Source of the DNA: Candidatus Poribacteria bacterium
GTDB taxonomy: Bacteria > Poribacteria > WGA-4E > WGA-3G
Direction of reading: 5' to 3'
DNA: 64,000 nt
Assembly (NCBI GenBank): GCA_963663765.2
Contig: CAXXUA010000013.1
Coordinates: 128,001-192,000 of the forward strand
Position 1 is the first letter of the stretch. Each line of letters begins with the position of its first letter. Below are positions 24,336-28,974 of this stretch, piece by piece. Under the pieces are notes generated by a model. That model had not been told where the DNA came from and ran no database searches. It worked only from the letters and a program-made list of their open reading frames with translations. The position numbers and the translations under genes are program-made.

Positions 24336-26897
24336 TTACAACCTTGGATCCACAGTTTCACTTTCAAGTGCTAATATCCCGAAAACACATTCATGAACTT
24401 TGGATATGGGTTCATTGTTCACGAACCGTTCAAGTGCTTCTATGCCTAAAGCAAATTCTCTGATGGCAAGCGAACGTTTATGAGATAATCCTCTATTTCG
24501 CAGACGTTCTAAGTTGTGTTCTAAAGTATATTCCGGTCCGTATATGATACGAAGGTATTCCCTACCCCGACATTTGACTGCGGGTTGGGCAAGTCCACGC
24601 TTCCCTTTTACAATGAAATCTAACGGTTTGATGACAAAACCCTCACCACCTTTTGTGGTAAGTTCTTCCCACTGACGAATAGCAGCAGCTTCGCTATCTT
24701 GATCTGTTAGGTCTACTGTGCCGTAAGCAGTTGAAAATAGGACGTTATTTTCAGAACCTTCACATAGTTTGGCAAGCATCTCCATGTGCCACAAATGTTC
24801 TTTGTCAATAAATACTTTTCCTTCTGCAGCTAAAAGATGGAACGGCGCAAGTTTTAGGTCCGAAATAGACTCTACTTGCCAACAGTAACGTTGATAGGCG
24901 TTGACGTATTCTTTCGCAGCAATAGTTCGTTTCCGATATCCATCCAAAAGTCCATTCAACTGAACACCACGTTTCTCAGCAGTTTCTAATGAACCAACCA
25001 CGTGGTCTATGGCGACACGTGCGGATGTCCCTACCGGTGCGTACTGTTGTCGTAATAGTTCTTGTGCTTTGACGGACCAGGGCATGAGTTCACAATCAAG
25101 ACAGAACCAGTCAGTATTCAAGTCCTCCCAAAAACCTGATTTATCAGCTGCCTTTTTAACTTGTAACAACACTTCATTTTCTAATGCTTCATCGTCGAAA
25201 AAGGGTCTACCAGTGCGTGTGTAACATATTCCAATTCTATCTTCCGATGACCCAAAACGCCTCTTCGCGACTTCGGAGGATTTACATACAATGACGACAG
25301 CACGTGATCCCATGTGTTTCTCTTGCCAAATCACATTGGTGACACCTTGATTGCGATAATACTTAAAACCTTCAGCAGGATGTTCAAGCAAGTTCGGTAT
25401 CGTTGTCGTTTCGGTTGGAGACATTGTCGGCGGCAGATAGATAAGCCATTTTGGATCTATGGCAAAGCGACTCATCACCTCAAGTGCTGCGATAGTGTTC
25501 TCTTCGCGGATCGTTACATTGTGATTTAAACGAGTGCTAATTGTGCGCCTTCCTATTACATCACTAATGTGCAAGATACCTTCATCTTTTTGTATATCTG
25601 AAGATGTTTGTTTATCTTGCAGTGGTTTTGCAGGTTCATAATATGTCTTGCGCGCAGGAACAGAAACAAGTTCTCTTTCAGGATATCGCAACGCAGTCAA
25701 TTTCCCACCATAGACACATCCAGTATCAACATTGATTGTGCGATTTATCCATTGCGGTTCAATCACGGGTGTGTGTCCATAGACAACAGTAGCACCACCA
25801 CGATATTCCTCTGCCCAATTTAGCCGAATTGGCAAACCGAACTCATCCGTTTCTCCTGTGGTTTCGCCATAAAGCGCGAATTCACGCACACGTCCAGACG
25901 CTCTACCTTGTAATTCCTTTTTCATGCCAGCGTGTGCTACAACAAGTTTCTCATTGTCAAAAACATAATGGCTTATCATAGCTTCAATGAATTCTGCAAC
26001 CTGCACCTTAAATTCATCCGACTCGTGTTCCAATTGAGACATTGATTCTGCTAAACCGTGTGTTTGCGTAACATTCTTGCCTCTGAGTGCGCGAGTTAAT
26101 TTTACATCATGATTGCCAGGTACACAAATTCCCACACCAGCCTTATGCATCTCCATCACCAATTTGAGTACTTCTAAAACCTTCGGTCCTCTGTCAACAT
26201 AGTCACCTACAAAAACTACTTTCCTACCTTGTGGATGTTTAACAGCTAATCCACCGTCCGGTAGATCAGATAATTCATAACCGAGTAACGCAAGCAATTC
26301 AACAAGTTCATCATAGCAACCGTGTATATCCCCAATGATGTCAAACGGACCGATATCTTCTGTGCGATTCGTCCATAATGATTGCCGTTCCACTTGCGCT
26401 GCTTCTACCTCTTCTGGTGTAGACATGACATACAAGAAGTTTCGGAATCCTTCGCGCTTAAGAGATCTAAGCGATCTACGCAATTGACTGGTCTGATTTC
26501 GCACGACATGCGATTTGAAGTTTCGGTCAGGACGCACTTCGTTCCTCTCATGACAGAGTTTTGACGGTAAGTTCAACACAATTCCAACAGTCAAATAGTG
26601 ATATTCACGTGCCAGTGCATGTAATGTTTTTCGTGATTCAGCTTGAACGTTTGTCGCATCAATCACCGTTAACTTTCCTGCAGCGAGACGTTTAGCAGCG
26701 ATATAATGTAAGACATCAAACGCTTCTTTCGTTGCAGATTGGTCGTTTTCATCGTCCGATACAAGTCCACGACAGAAATCGGATGAGAGGATTTCTGTAG
26801 GTTTAAAATGCTGATGTGCAAAAGTAGACTTACCAGAACCAGAAGCTCCAATAAGGATAACAAGTGATGGATCAGGAATTCTAATAGTGATACTCAC
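24336..26897 (-). CDS. pnkp: Bacterial polynucleotide kinase-phosphatase-ligase (RNA repair); native start displaced by an IS
   Basis: Kinase GASGSGKST; metallophosphoesterase DIHG/GDYVDRG/GNHD; ligase motif I EKHMGSR, EGFVIKP, KCRGREYLRIIYG, C-terminal DPRL. Confidence 0.96.
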   Translation of the reverse strand: MSITIRIPDPSLVILIGASGSGKSTFAHQHFKPTEILSSDFCRGLVSDDENDQSATKEAFDVLHYIAAKRLAAGKLTVIDATNVQAESRKTLHALAREYHYLTVGIVLNLPSKLCHERNEVRPDRNFKSHVVRNQTSQLRRSLRSLKREGFRNFLYVMSTPEEVEAAQVERQSLWTNRTEDIGPFDIIGDIHGCYDELVELLALLGYELSDLPDGGLAVKHPQGRKVVFVGDYVDRGPKVLEVLKLVMEMHKAGVGICVPGNHDVKLTRALRGKNVTQTHGLAESMSQLEHESDEFKVQVAEFIEAMISHYVFDNEKLVVAHAGMKKELQGRASGRVREFALYGETTGETDEFGLPIRLNWAEEYRGGATVVYGHTPVIEPQWINRTINVDTGCVYGGKLTALRYPERELVSVPARKTYYEPAKPLQDKQTSSDIQKDEGILHISDVIGRRTISTRLNHNVTIREENTIAALEVMSRFAIDPKWLIYLPPTMSPTETTTIPNLLEHPAEGFKYYRNQGVTNVIWQEKHMGSRAVVIVCKSSEVAKRRFGSSEDRIGICYTRTGRPFFDDEALENEVLLQVKKAADKSGFWEDLNTDWFCLDCELMPWSVKAQELLRQQYAPVGTSARVAIDHVVGSLETAEKRGVQLNGLLDGYRKRTIAAKEYVNAYQRYCWQVESISDLKLAPFHLLAAEGKVFIDKEHLWHMEMLAKLCEGSENNVLFSTAYGTVDLTDQDSEAAAIRQWEELTTKGGEGFVIKPLDFIVKGKRGLAQPAVKCRGREYLRIIYGPEYTLEHNLERLRNRGLSHKRSLAIREFALGIEALERFVNNEPISKVHECVFGILALESETVDPRL

Positions 26898-27050
26898 GAC
26901 GACTAAAGTCGTGTGCTTCTTTGAAACACATAACTCTCCTCTGTGTGATTCCTGCTTCCGTCTCTCGTGCCTCTATCCTGAACTGCGTGAGGTCTTATTC
27001 GGACTCCACAAGCGTTTATGCTCTCTGTCTATCCGACAGCGAGGGTTCTT
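26870..27050 (-). ncRNA. Putative TnpB omegaRNA/reRNA scaffold; its guide would be the 5' end of pnkp
   Basis: Lies between the tnpB 3' end and the IS right end, where omegaRNAs are known to be encoded. Boundaries approximate and expression unknown. Confidence 0.5.
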
Positions 27051-27375
27051 AGGTTGATTGCAGCATTTATGTCTCTATCTATTTGATAGTCGCATTGACT
27101 GCAATGATAAGTTCTCTCTGATAGCGTCAAATCATCTTACTTGTGTCTACAACGACTACAAGTTTTGCTTGAAGCATAGAATATCGGTGCTTGTAATACC
27201 ATTTTCATGTGATAATGTCTCATTAGCAGCGGAAATCTGGTAGGAGCGACCTCCCGGTCGCGACCGAGAGGTCGCTCCTACCGAAGAGAGTAACCCCCTG
27301 CCAGTAAACAGTAGAATTCCTTAATGAGACAAGATTTATTTGCATTGGTATAATCTTGTGTGTTTTGTAGGGCAT
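27030..27375 (-). pseudogene. tnpB: tnpB remnant
   Basis: AGGAG plus MPYKTHKI at 27375, then SSKTCSRC..*..LTLSERTYHCSQC...IDRDINAAINL (Zn ribbon and RuvC-III). Middle of the gene is deleted. Confidence 0.85.
27216..27331. repeat. Small IR-bounded insert containing a GTAG-family REP palindrome
   Basis: TGTCTCATTA/TAATGAGACA ends; internal GTAGGAGCGACCTC...GAGGTCGCTCCTAC (27240-27281), with a near-copy at 62198-62240. Confidence 0.7.
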
Positions 27376-27570
27376 ACCTAACTCCTGTAGGGTGCTGACT
27401 TCCATTGTAGTGGTGTGGTAGACGCTACAACATCTACCACTAAGTCAGTCCTATAAGGGATACCATAGAAAACATATAAATGTCAACGTTTTTTGACCCA
27501 AGCATAAATGCTTGGGATTGTCAGTTAATTCCCTTCATTATCTTAAATTAAATCACATATTTAGTCTGTT

Positions 27571-28974
27571 CTAATCATGACTTTCTCGCTTAAACACAGC
27601 CATCTGAGTAGGAGAACCAACAACTTCATCCGTTTCCCCTACAGGATTTAAAGCAACATTATACCCAAACTTTTTGGAAACACCTGATGCCCAAGATTGA
27701 AATTCTTCACGCGTCCATTCAAAACGGTGGTCTCTGTGTCGAAACTTACCTTCAGGTAGATTCTCAAACTTTACGTTATATTCCACATTAGGTGTTGTCA
27801 ACACTACCATTTCAGGAGAAGCAAACTCAAATATAACACGTTCAAAAGCAGCAAGACGCGACACATCCAAATGTTCAATTACCTCTATTACGGCAGCAGC
27901 ATCATAGCCTTCCAAACGTTTGTCTCTATAGCAGAGGGACCCTTGCATTAACTTTAGTCGTTCTTTTTGTTTCTCTGGCATGCGATCATAACGTAGTCGC
28001 TGTTGGGCAATTACCAAAGTTTGATGCGATACATCCATCCCAACAATCTCCTCAAACTGTTTTTCTTTCATCAGTTTTCGCAGCAATTTCCCTTCTCCAC
28101 AGCCTAAATCCAAAACACGTTTTGAACCAGACTGCTTGATCACTTCTGTCGCTTGCGTTAGACGAAGTTCATTCAAACCAATGCGTTGTTCAATTTCCGC
28201 TTCTCCTTGATGCGTTTGTTCTTCCGCTTCTTCTATCGCTTCGTCGCGCAATTGTGTAAGTGCTTCCCGTGTAAGTCTCCGTTGATGTTTCAGATAGCGA
28301 TTGACAATAGTTTCTTGCTCAGGATGTTCGGGAAGCCACTCCTCACCGTGTTTCAATAGTTTCCTAATCTCCGCTTCGTCAACCCAGTAGTGTTTTTCAT
28401 CATCAAGTACAGGAATTAGCACATATAAGTGTGTAAGGAGTTCACACAAACGGCATGTGGACTCAAGCGTAACACTGAAGTAACGGCTATCACCCCAATC
28501 CGGATTTTGTGAATCTAATCCATATCGTTCTGTCTTGACAGTATAACCGAGGGGTTCAAATAATCGTCTAAGGTATTTTTCTCCACCTCGGCAAGGCAAT
28601 GTAGACAATTTAACAGTTAGGGGTATCGGTGTGTCTGCAAGTTCTTGTCGTTCTTTGCTTTTCCCGGATAAACTATTGCGAAAAACCTTTGCAATAGCAA
28701 CACTCATGAATGAGGAAGCAACATAAGGTCGGTCATTGACGTATTCGGCTAATGCAAAACTATCCCTAAATTGTCCACGATTCTTACGCACAAGTCCAAC
28801 GGAATCAATTTCAAGCAGCAAGGCTGCTGTGCATCTATCTGCATGCGCTTCTGGATAAAAAACGTGAGCTTGTCCGTAAGCAAGACTAAAGGTGTGAAGT
28901 CTATCAGGATGCTTGTGTAGCAGAAACCCAAGGTCTGTCGCAGGAGAATAGGTTGTTGTGATTGTTAGAAGCAT
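27571..28974 (-). CDS. hen1: 3'-terminal RNA ribose 2'-O-methyltransferase Hen1
   Basis: N-terminal MLLTITTT..PATDLGFLLHKHP ligase-activating domain; VLDLGCGEG, EVIEH, RHRDHRFEW; adjacent to pnkp. Confidence 0.96.
   Translation of the reverse strand: MLLTITTTYSPATDLGFLLHKHPDRLHTFSLAYGQAHVFYPEAHADRCTAALLLEIDSVGLVRKNRGQFRDSFALAEYVNDRPYVASSFMSVAIAKVFRNSLSGKSKERQELADTPIPLTVKLSTLPCRGGEKYLRRLFEPLGYTVKTERYGLDSQNPDWGDSRYFSVTLESTCRLCELLTHLYVLIPVLDDEKHYWVDEAEIRKLLKHGEEWLPEHPEQETIVNRYLKHQRRLTREALTQLRDEAIEEAEEQTHQGEAEIEQRIGLNELRLTQATEVIKQSGSKRVLDLGCGEGKLLRKLMKEKQFEEIVGMDVSHQTLVIAQQRLRYDRMPEKQKERLKLMQGSLCYRDKRLEGYDAAAVIEVIEHLDVSRLAAFERVIFEFASPEMVVLTTPNVEYNVKFENLPEGKFRHRDHRFEWTREEFQSWASGVSKKFGYNVALNPVGETDEVVGSPTQMAVFKRESHD

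Follow-up and report, generated by a model that had tools for sequence, protein, structure and literature searches.

TnpB elements, the ancestors of Cas12, are usually treated as neutral or harmful passengers of the genomes in which they reside. The closest described systems are IS608 and ISDra2, insertion sequences (IS) of the IS200/IS605 group that are moved by the Y1 transposase TnpA in a 'peel and paste' manner and carry a TnpB that works with an omega RNA. In IS608 the left guide (GL, AAAG) goes with the left cleavage motif (CL, TTAC) and the right guide (GR, GAAT) with the right cleavage motif (CR, TCAA), with A+16:T-3 and A+17:T-4 among the pairs, and the guide is placed directly 5' of the hairpin foot (PMC3201880, PMC5934647). 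Here we describe a 647-base-pair (bp) element of this group, inserted into the start of pnkp, a gene of the Pnkp-Hen1 RNA-repair system, in Candidatus Poribacteria bacterium; the window, as the term is used below, is the whole stretch analysed, 64,000 nucleotides (nt) of GenBank assembly GCA_963663765.2 (contig CAXXUA010000013.1, positions 128,001 to 192,000 of the forward strand). Candidatus Poribacteria are sponge symbionts, and the genome of the window (G000) amounts to 6.35 Mb in 15 contigs, the window being C13:128001-192000. The right end of the element provides an in-frame GTG, and we put at roughly 0.7 the probability that pnkp is still translated from it, as MSIT-IRIPDPSL; judged from sequence comparison, this reading is strongly favoured because of the frame bias, the excess of insertions on start codons and the persistence of tsaD that are seen across the element family.

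Meers et al. (bioRxiv 10.1101/2023.03.14.532601) report that one TnpA can move several related families without cross-reacting with a distinct one, that excision is scarless, that the donor joint (target motif, or TAM, plus right flank) is cut by TnpB with its own guide RNA, that the element is recopied from the sister chromosome after cleavage, and that TnpB elements in general have no orientation bias with respect to upstream genes, which makes the family of our insert unusual. This family resembles IS608 and ISDra2 in having subterminal hairpins and neither terminal inverted repeats nor duplication, in inserting 3' of a fixed tetranucleotide, in using 4-nt guides 5' of the hairpins under the same crossed rule, and in a TnpB that has OrfB_IS605 and zinc-ribbon domains and matches the ISDra2 structure. 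It differs from them in its target, TGAA (mostly within ATGAA), in its right motif, TCAC, in full-length copies that carry tnpB only, and in a right end that holds an in-frame start, with about 40% of the copies on start codons. As in the ISGst and PATE-like elements treated by Meers et al., copies with tnpB only and protein-less derivatives share ends and are presumably moved in trans, by a TnpA with its gene elsewhere, and the donor joint, TAM plus right flank, is the TnpB target; unlike those elements, the deleted copy here keeps the whole putative guide-RNA region, and it does so inside a coding sequence. The IStrons, in which TnpB is joined to a group I intron (bioRxiv 10.1101/2023.11.20.567912), are likewise transposon devices that cut the cost of landing in a gene, but they self-splice from the RNA, whereas here nothing is removed and translation would restart at the element's end. 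No description of start-codon donation by IS200/IS605 elements was found in a literature search that was incomplete and did not include supplements.

The locus itself holds the known Pnkp-Hen1 RNA-repair arrangement, a three-domain Pnkp beside a Hen1 with the Pnkp-activating N-terminal region; the proteins show no difference from that system, and only the start of pnkp is displaced. Hen1 has a Hen1_L domain at residues 1-242 (Pfam, E 6.9e-114) and methyltransferase domains, while Pnkp has AAA_33 (12-144), Metallophos (184-377) and PNKP_ligase (470-847, E 8.6e-177). The order hen1-pnkp is kept across the genus, and pnkp is single-copy in G000 (one match). It is found in 23 of the 24 other genus genomes searched; in G023 it is in pieces with internal stops (L061, L065, L066; G023:C31:107852-110418), and there is no match in G013, an assembly that is 81% complete. 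A split of pnkp over two frames is also seen in G011 (L062, L064; G011:C17). Some members of the genus are thus losing the RNA-repair system, unless these loci have been misassembled. The features that concern the start of pnkp are the following, a slash marking the junction of element and host.

27571..28974, minus strand: hen1, 467 amino acids (aa), intact; RNA 3'-end 2'-O-methyltransferase, the partner of Pnkp (Pfam, list of open reading frames, ORFs)
27534..27538, minus strand: ATGAA, made up of the native start codon of pnkp and 2 nt of the next codon, and also the target motif (TAM) of the element (empty sites in L038, L067 and a contig of run X5)
27521..27538, minus strand: mini-ORF from the native start, ATG AAG GGA ATT AAC TGA (MKGIN), with its stop within the left end
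26887..27533, minus strand: non-autonomous IS200/IS605 derivative of 647 bp, made of left end, nested repeat, tnpB 3' relic and right end (sibling alignment)
26895..26897, minus strand: in-frame GTG from the right end, the proposed present start of pnkp (GTG AGT ATC AC/T, MSIT; ORF list)
24336..26886, minus strand: body of pnkp (kinase, phosphatase, ligase), intact (Pfam)

The hen1 stop TAG (27573-27571, minus strand) is separated by 32 nt from ATGAA (27538-27534), within which TGAA is the left cleavage motif, and the element terminates in ...GTCGTCGTGAGTATCAC, with the final TCAC at 26890-26887. Deletion of the insert in silico yields ATG AAT ATT AGA ATT CCT GAT CCA TCA CTT (MNIRIPDPSL). In the occupied gene the sequence after the right junction is T ATT AGA ATT CCT GAT CCA TCA CTT, and the frame is open from the GTG onward (853 codons, 24336-26897, by the ORF listing). 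Reading from the native ATG runs into an in-frame stop after 5 codons, an arrangement found in 55 of 65 left ends of the family.

The unoccupied form of the site is preserved in relatives. In the closest of them (L038, 91% protein identity) it reads ...aaaATGAAT ATA AGA ATT CCT, and in L067 (93% over the first 495 residues) ...taagataATGAAT ATA AAA ATT CCT, with a spacer nearly identical to that of the window; more generally, in 22 of the 24 pnkp loci examined only ATG and a single further codon precede I-(K/R/N)-I-P, and the N-terminus is longer in the two that come from another genus. A contig of 1875 nt from run X5 joins 26882 to 27534 with four other letters between, and since it has about 2% other differences we assign it to a nearby strain without the insert. 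These three empty sites (L038, L067, X5 contig) equal left flank plus right flank, with no target duplication. The insert is present in contigs from two studies, X1 (16.5 kb) and X8 (2.9 kb), both of which cross the right junction with 0 differences, the X1 contig crossing the left junction as well. From the empty sites and these junction contigs we conclude that the insertion is real, recent and polymorphic among close relatives. All 24 sequencing runs were available as contigs, from which rare variants drop out. In the RNA run X12 a contig covers 26929-27199; the element contigs of this run continue into other flanks and are therefore attributed to other copies of the family.

An earlier note on this DNA, made from the letters alone, had described the insert as an IS200/IS605 element with a tnpB relic lying between ATGAA and TCAC, and its coordinates are borne out base by base, the type of element being confirmed by sibling alignment and Pfam domains. 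Its other structural claims also hold: the MNIRIPDPSL start 32 nt after hen1 agrees with both the deletion and the relatives, whose pnkp 5' sequences (L038, L067, X5 contig) are as it had predicted; the tetranucleotides at the hairpin feet, CAAT and GAAG, match TGAA and TCAC by the IS608 rule, as checked against PMC5934647; and the in-frame GTG of the right end (26897-26895) does open the 853-codon ORF. The note had named two outcomes that would refute it, another pnkp 5' sequence in relatives and other ends in siblings; neither occurs, since the siblings define identical ends (10 left, 12 right in G000).

The case for a working GTG comes largely from the behaviour of the family elsewhere. A search of 40 genomes of the genus for the element's final 164 nt gave matches in 25 of them. 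Junctions were collected from 30 loci and 60 further regions, among the listed hits that reach the right end and in genomes of few large contigs, which gave 86 unique right-end junctions from other genomes after removal of two near-duplicates. An ORF of at least 80 codons continues in the frame of the GTG at 36-37 of these 86 junctions, as compared with 3 and 3 in the other sense frames and 6, 0 and 0 in the antisense frames. For the GTG frame, a null built on 94,522 NTGAA sites, all in G000 and weighted by the observed motif mix, predicts 13.6% (binomial p = 2e-11). Where both ends are present, 21 of 53 junctions lie on a start codon, the criterion being 80 or more codons downstream and no more than 35 open ones upstream (null 5.2%, p = 7e-14), and overall about 40% of the family's copies are at gene starts. 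Of 89 junctions in other genomes, 87 have GTG at the position of the donated start. If the start codon of a gene supplies the NTG of the target, the GTG falls in frame automatically (ATG AA/ against GTG AGT ATC AC/), and the in-frame GTG is, by these comparisons, a design of the whole family and not a peculiarity of the pnkp locus. Similar observations can be made within G000, where 5 of 12 right ends continue in the GTG frame, as follows.

In-frame junction in G000: pnkp, 853 codons
In-frame junction in G000: gene of the ELM1 family, 359 codons, position 1 of the Pfam model at residue 13
In-frame junction in G000: unknown ORF, 271 codons
In-frame junction in G000: DUF433 gene, 84 codons, position 1 of the model at residue 9
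In-frame junction in G000: internal to a WD40 gene, 135 codons

As a control, another IS200/IS605 family of G000, which has 25 copies and a right end unlike this one, gives no more than 2 ORFs of 80 codons or longer in any one frame. Ten downstream ORFs, picked from the 36 listed, were compared with Pfam, and all ten are complete genes, with the first domain model beginning at residues 4-31; they encode PanB, a zinc ADH, YchF, a PGM/PMM, GcvT, TsaD, a NadE-like protein, an SDR, an M20 peptidase and an MR/MLE enzyme. At the level of sequence, then, the frame bias, the start-codon excess and the persistence under purifying selection described below stand as results. A start-like position is held by 17 of 33 full-length copies versus 2 of 17 short derivatives (<700 bp), which hints at retention rather than target choice as the source of the excess. 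A raw target preference was considered for this excess and set aside, the figures for the two classes fitting retention better, although the numbers are small and the classes are not age-matched.

One telling example of persistence is tsaD. Most bacteria cannot do without TsaD. In G017, a genome assembled into a single contig, TsaD has one full-length match and a short second match (239-aa frame), presumably TsaB, and the full-length tsaD lies directly behind an element, as ...attATGAA/GGGACTTTC...(~205 bp)...GTGAGTATCAC/A ATA CTT GGA ATT GAT ACA TCT. Another example is ychF, the sole YchF match in G016 abutting a right end of the family. Across the genus tsaD is single-copy in 39 of 40 genomes. 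Its start is empty in 24 of 30 loci (20 GTGAA, 2 ATGAA and 2 TTGAA, directly before ATA/ATC CTT GGA), and an element is present at the start in 6 of the 30 loci (L237-L266), in three forms. One form is the ~205-bp derivative, the same in three species; another, in G016, is a subfamily copy with ATG rather than GTG at -11; the third, in G003 and G020 (L250, L253), belongs to a different IS family, the right end of which has GGAGG, 6 nt and an ATG in frame, adding a 15-residue extension, MKKQEPHDFSRGSIR, to TsaD. By sequence, elements have settled on the tsaD start codon (NTGAA/A ATA CTT GGA) on three or more separate occasions. Comparison of tsaD between the three species with the shared insert gives pS of 0.20-0.27 and pN/pS of 0.06-0.10, indicating strong purifying selection, and tsaD function clearly persists, to judge from these substitutions, behind the same right end. 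In one of the three, the insert's left end and the ATGAA have decayed and the right end is kept, so that this copy is fixed, not switching. With tsaD long maintained behind the right end, there is strong indirect evidence that the donated start works.

Turning to the element itself, alignment with its siblings identifies the insert as a non-autonomous, internally deleted derivative of a 1376-bp tnpB-only IS200/IS605 element. Its positions 1-183 are the left end and the first 8 tnpB codons (91.8% identity to positions 1-182 of the 1376-bp sibling), and its positions 335-647 correspond to 1064-1376 of the full-length sibling (98.7%), so that of tnpB only 8 N-terminal and 56 C-terminal codons are retained. 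Its parts, besides the GTG, are these.

27517..27520, minus strand: left guide GL, CAAT, which pairs with CL, TGAA (IS608 rule)
27497..27516, minus strand: left subterminal hairpin, CCCAAGCA-TTTA-TGCTTGGG (DNA fold)
27196..27351, minus strand: nested 156-bp repeat unit with a 44-nt GC-rich palindrome, in place of ~880 bp of tnpB
27029..27199, minus strand: tnpB 3' relic, the last 56 codons (zinc ribbon, RuvC-III DRDINAAINL; sibling alignment)
26887..27199, minus strand: putative guide-RNA (omega RNA) scaffold region, 313 nt
26916..26919, minus strand: right guide GR, GAAG, which pairs with CR, TCAC (IS608 rule)
26895..26915, minus strand: right subterminal hairpin, CACACGAC-TTTA-GTCGT(C)GTG, in which a single base bulges out (compensatory variants)
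26887..26890, minus strand: right cleavage motif CR, TCAC, the last bases of the element (sibling ends)
26871..26886, minus strand: first 16 nt past the right end, TATTAGAATTCCTGAT, by its geometry the expected guide part of the relic's omega RNA

The guide pairing, CAAT/TGAA and GAAG/TCAC, comprises G1:C-3, G2:C-4, A.A and G4:C-1, and the cleavage site lies 13 nt from the left guide, a spacing repeated in the tnpA-bearing element of G000. The left hairpin has an 8-bp stem, and its DNA fold reaches -8.6 kcal/mol (z -3.07), a value equalled by 2 of 200 shuffles. By energy the right hairpin is weak, with only a 4-bp upper stem (z -1.58); we nevertheless accept the longer bulged stem because of compensatory changes among 87 copies from other genomes, in which the upper stem pairs vary as AC/GT, GC/GC, GA/TC and CC/GG and the bulge base is variable. 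Among the 87 right ends the last 11 nt, GTGAGTATCAC, are nearly invariant. The tnpB relic has an in-frame TAA at 27139-27137 and its original stop, TAG, at 27031-27029, with 145 nt of element beyond. The 313-nt right region is 97-99% identical to the six siblings that hold all of it, four of them with intact TnpB. A search of 26000-28500 gave no Rfam match to an omega RNA family, only sub-threshold chance matches to RsaD and ctRNA_pGA1, and a single-sequence RNA fold of the right 341 nt (z -3.4) gave no interpretable structure.

The nested 156-bp repeat, which may be a MITE or a satellite, has inverted-repeat-like ends (ATACCA...TGGTAT) and occurs in dozens of copies at 93-99% identity, some in head-to-tail arrays; examples are at G000 C15:146770-147776, C11:128266-128896 and C13:575178-576593, and another unit is nested in the family copy at C3:435860-436329. 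Joints going back 156 were seen in all 4 runs. The right end also holds a short ORF (26881-26931, minus strand; GGAGAG upstream, ATG TGT TTC ... CAC TAT TAG) that crosses the hairpin and the GTG; it is out of frame with pnkp and stops 6 nt into it. A GGAG(A/G)G followed by A/GTG is found about 45 nt from the right end in most copies, with frame and length varying between subfamilies. This ORF may belong to the guide RNA or serve for coupling; translational coupling through it was dropped as an explanation, since neither its frame nor its length is conserved between subfamilies.

Within G000 the family is uniform at its ends. GGGAATT directly follows (A/T)TGAA at 10 of 10 left ends (8 ATGAA, 2 TTGAA), GAGTAT(C/T)AC is the terminus at 12 of 12 right ends, and in other genomes 52 of 53 left ends follow NTGAA. 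The G000 copies include four of 1376 bp with intact tnpB, one of 1773 bp that is broken, and three short derivatives of 391-453 bp. The sibling TnpB, of 358 aa, has the Pfam domains OrfB_IS605 (6.4e-29), Cas12f1-like_TNB (1.5e-18) and HTH_OrfB_IS605 and matches structures of ISDra2 TnpB in the PDB (E 6.8e-43), and the four sibling TnpB proteins carry the motifs GIDVG, IETL and DRDINAA. A copy at C5:1199060-1199527, which has no left end, shares the repeat/tnpB-3' junction with the window copy, so the deleted form predates the arrival of at least one of the two. A chimeric element (G000 C3:94584-95972, minus strand) combines the left end and tnpB 5' part of this family with the tnpB 3' part of another, and its right end, ...GGGGAGTATGTCAG, is that of the other tnpB family, which has about 25 copies in the genome.

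None of the family members seen has a tnpA of its own. Y1 tnpA is present in G000 as three intact genes and one interrupted (Y1_Tnp), all in a 1753-bp tnpA-tnpB element outside the family; it has the same architecture as the insert, and its guides fit the rule (AAAT/TTAA, CAAG/TGAC), but its hairpins and motifs differ. One of the four tnpA-tnpB elements (L034, region G000 C5:353059-353373) is interrupted by a 1316-bp element of another IS type with about a dozen copies. A weak Y1_Tnp match (42 bits, 252-aa frame) at G000 C4:621661-623931 (L035) adjoins a long array of repeats with a period of about 37 bp, and it may be a REP-associated (RAYT-like) transposase with its repeats.

The most likely course of events at pnkp is as follows. 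An internally deleted copy of a tnpB-only element, mobilised in trans by a TnpA that may or may not be one of those named above, inserted 3' of TGAA, inside ATG AA/T, the first five bases of pnkp in the hen1-pnkp operon. Ribosomes at the old ATG would halt after five codons, in the left end, and, as at other occupied start codons, the M-K/N start of the gene would be replaced by M-S-I-T. Transcripts of pnkp would come by read-through from hen1 or start inside the element, and the level of Pnkp has probably changed. In a weak scan the sense strand shows a single terminator-like site, which falls inside the pnkp coding sequence, and none in the stretch from hen1 to pnkp. The pnkp insert would thus be one case of a family habit of settling on start codons, and not a switch dedicated to RNA repair.

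Several points weigh against translation of pnkp from the GTG. In X12, the one RNA run examined, neither pnkp nor hen1 is covered; no Shine-Dalgarno-like motif precedes the GTG, which sits in the 3' arm of the right hairpin and whose conservation is inseparable from its role in that transposition hairpin; and a promoter scan, itself weak, found no sigma-70-like promoter on the sense strand within the element. The support for a working donated start comes from other genes and other copies and would extend to pnkp by analogy. The nulls derive from G000 alone, the junctions are phylogenetically non-independent and most of the genomes are metagenome-assembled. Moreover, pnkp is non-essential in the genus (broken in G023; not found in G013), and therefore an intact ORF after a recent insertion is no proof of function. 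Some of these points would equally suit a plain knock-out, in which the start was lost, Pnkp is not made, the ORF is intact only because the event is recent, and RNA repair is on its way out: the dispensability of pnkp and the placement of the GTG, in a hairpin arm and without a ribosome-binding motif, are as such an event would leave them, and the insert, which is 1-3% off its siblings and absent from close relatives, has had little time. We consider this unlikely, as the same right end stands before complete housekeeping genes, including the sole full-length tsaD of a closed genome, under strong purifying selection since, and as insertions tolerated through a working start would give what is seen, 36 of 86 junctions in the GTG frame while the two remaining sense frames have 3 each. 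That the assembly has misplaced a repeat into pnkp is barely worth entertaining; the element is repetitive and its 156-bp unit exists in dozens of copies, but the X1 and X8 contigs cross the junction without differences and the junction falls exactly at the target motif and end of the family.

The earlier note had gone further and taken the insert for a precisely reversible switch on RNA repair, with pnkp off as long as the site is occupied; scarless excision by TnpA, which single-stranded DNA and stress would favour, would turn the gene on in part of the population. As alternatives for pnkp it had named this excision and an IS-donated start. Of the two, the donated start has gained from the family-wide frame bias and from tsaD, and the excision switch has gained no supporting sign. 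Precise excision by a Y1 TnpA is chemically possible. In favour of a switch, the ends, guides and cleavage motifs are all intact and fit the IS608 pairing, the genome contains three intact Y1 tnpA genes besides an interrupted one, the family has moved recently (97-99% identical copies at different sites), and the deleted composite form itself was mobilised or copied at least once. Scarless excision, for its part, is established for this IS family (PMC3201880; Meers et al.). A switch is improbable all the same. Given the family-wide evidence for the donated start, pnkp is probably not off, and the tnpA genes, at most candidates for a cognate transposase, are those of an element that differs in its hairpins and motifs (TTAA / TGAC); the old tsaD insert has lost its left end and kept the right one; and in the insert-carrying runs X1 and X8 the empty joint, ATGAATATTAGA, is absent from the contigs, which cannot show rare alleles. 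The four intact sibling TnpB genes speak against it as well. By analogy with the described systems, the guide RNA of the relic, loaded into a sibling TnpB, would find its target in the restored site, ATGAA plus TATTAGAATTCCTGAT, and with the guide-RNA region retained and four intact sibling TnpB present, the restored site is expected to be cut, so that reversion would be opposed by cleavage and recopying. Since Hen1-Pnkp is probably not silenced, we advise against retaining the stress-switch reading unless reads or protein data come to support it.

Overall, translation of pnkp from the donated GTG fits a wider pattern, and it is this pattern, a TnpB family that sits on start codons and supplies its own start, that we consider the part worth following. 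We tentatively suggest, at a little under even odds, that start codons have become the special niche of one lineage of TnpB-bearing IS200/IS605 elements in Poribacteria. By their sequences, the target NTGAA coincides with the commonest kind of gene start (Met-Lys/Asn), and the right end carries an outward-facing start, a GTG at -11 or, in a second family, a Shine-Dalgarno motif with an ATG. Such an element would fit codon 2 even of essential genes, and some copies may become the new 5' end of the gene. The excess of start-codon over intergenic copies might be explained by transcription from the host promoter or by protection from deletion, as an imprecise loss would kill the gene and copies at gene starts would persist longer than intergenic ones, and the start-codon pattern may be an adaptation.

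In conclusion, one family of TnpB elements has, as part of its own make-up, a means of inserting at start codons that spares the gene. Should the donated start be confirmed, it would represent a new kind of mitigation of transposon cost and would furnish host genes with altered N-termini and 5' leaders, and it would call for caution in annotation, as such genes look start-less or interrupted. If, in addition, these elements do colonise start codons as proposed, this would be a harmless and hard-to-lose insertion strategy, distinct from intron splicing and from safe-site targeting.

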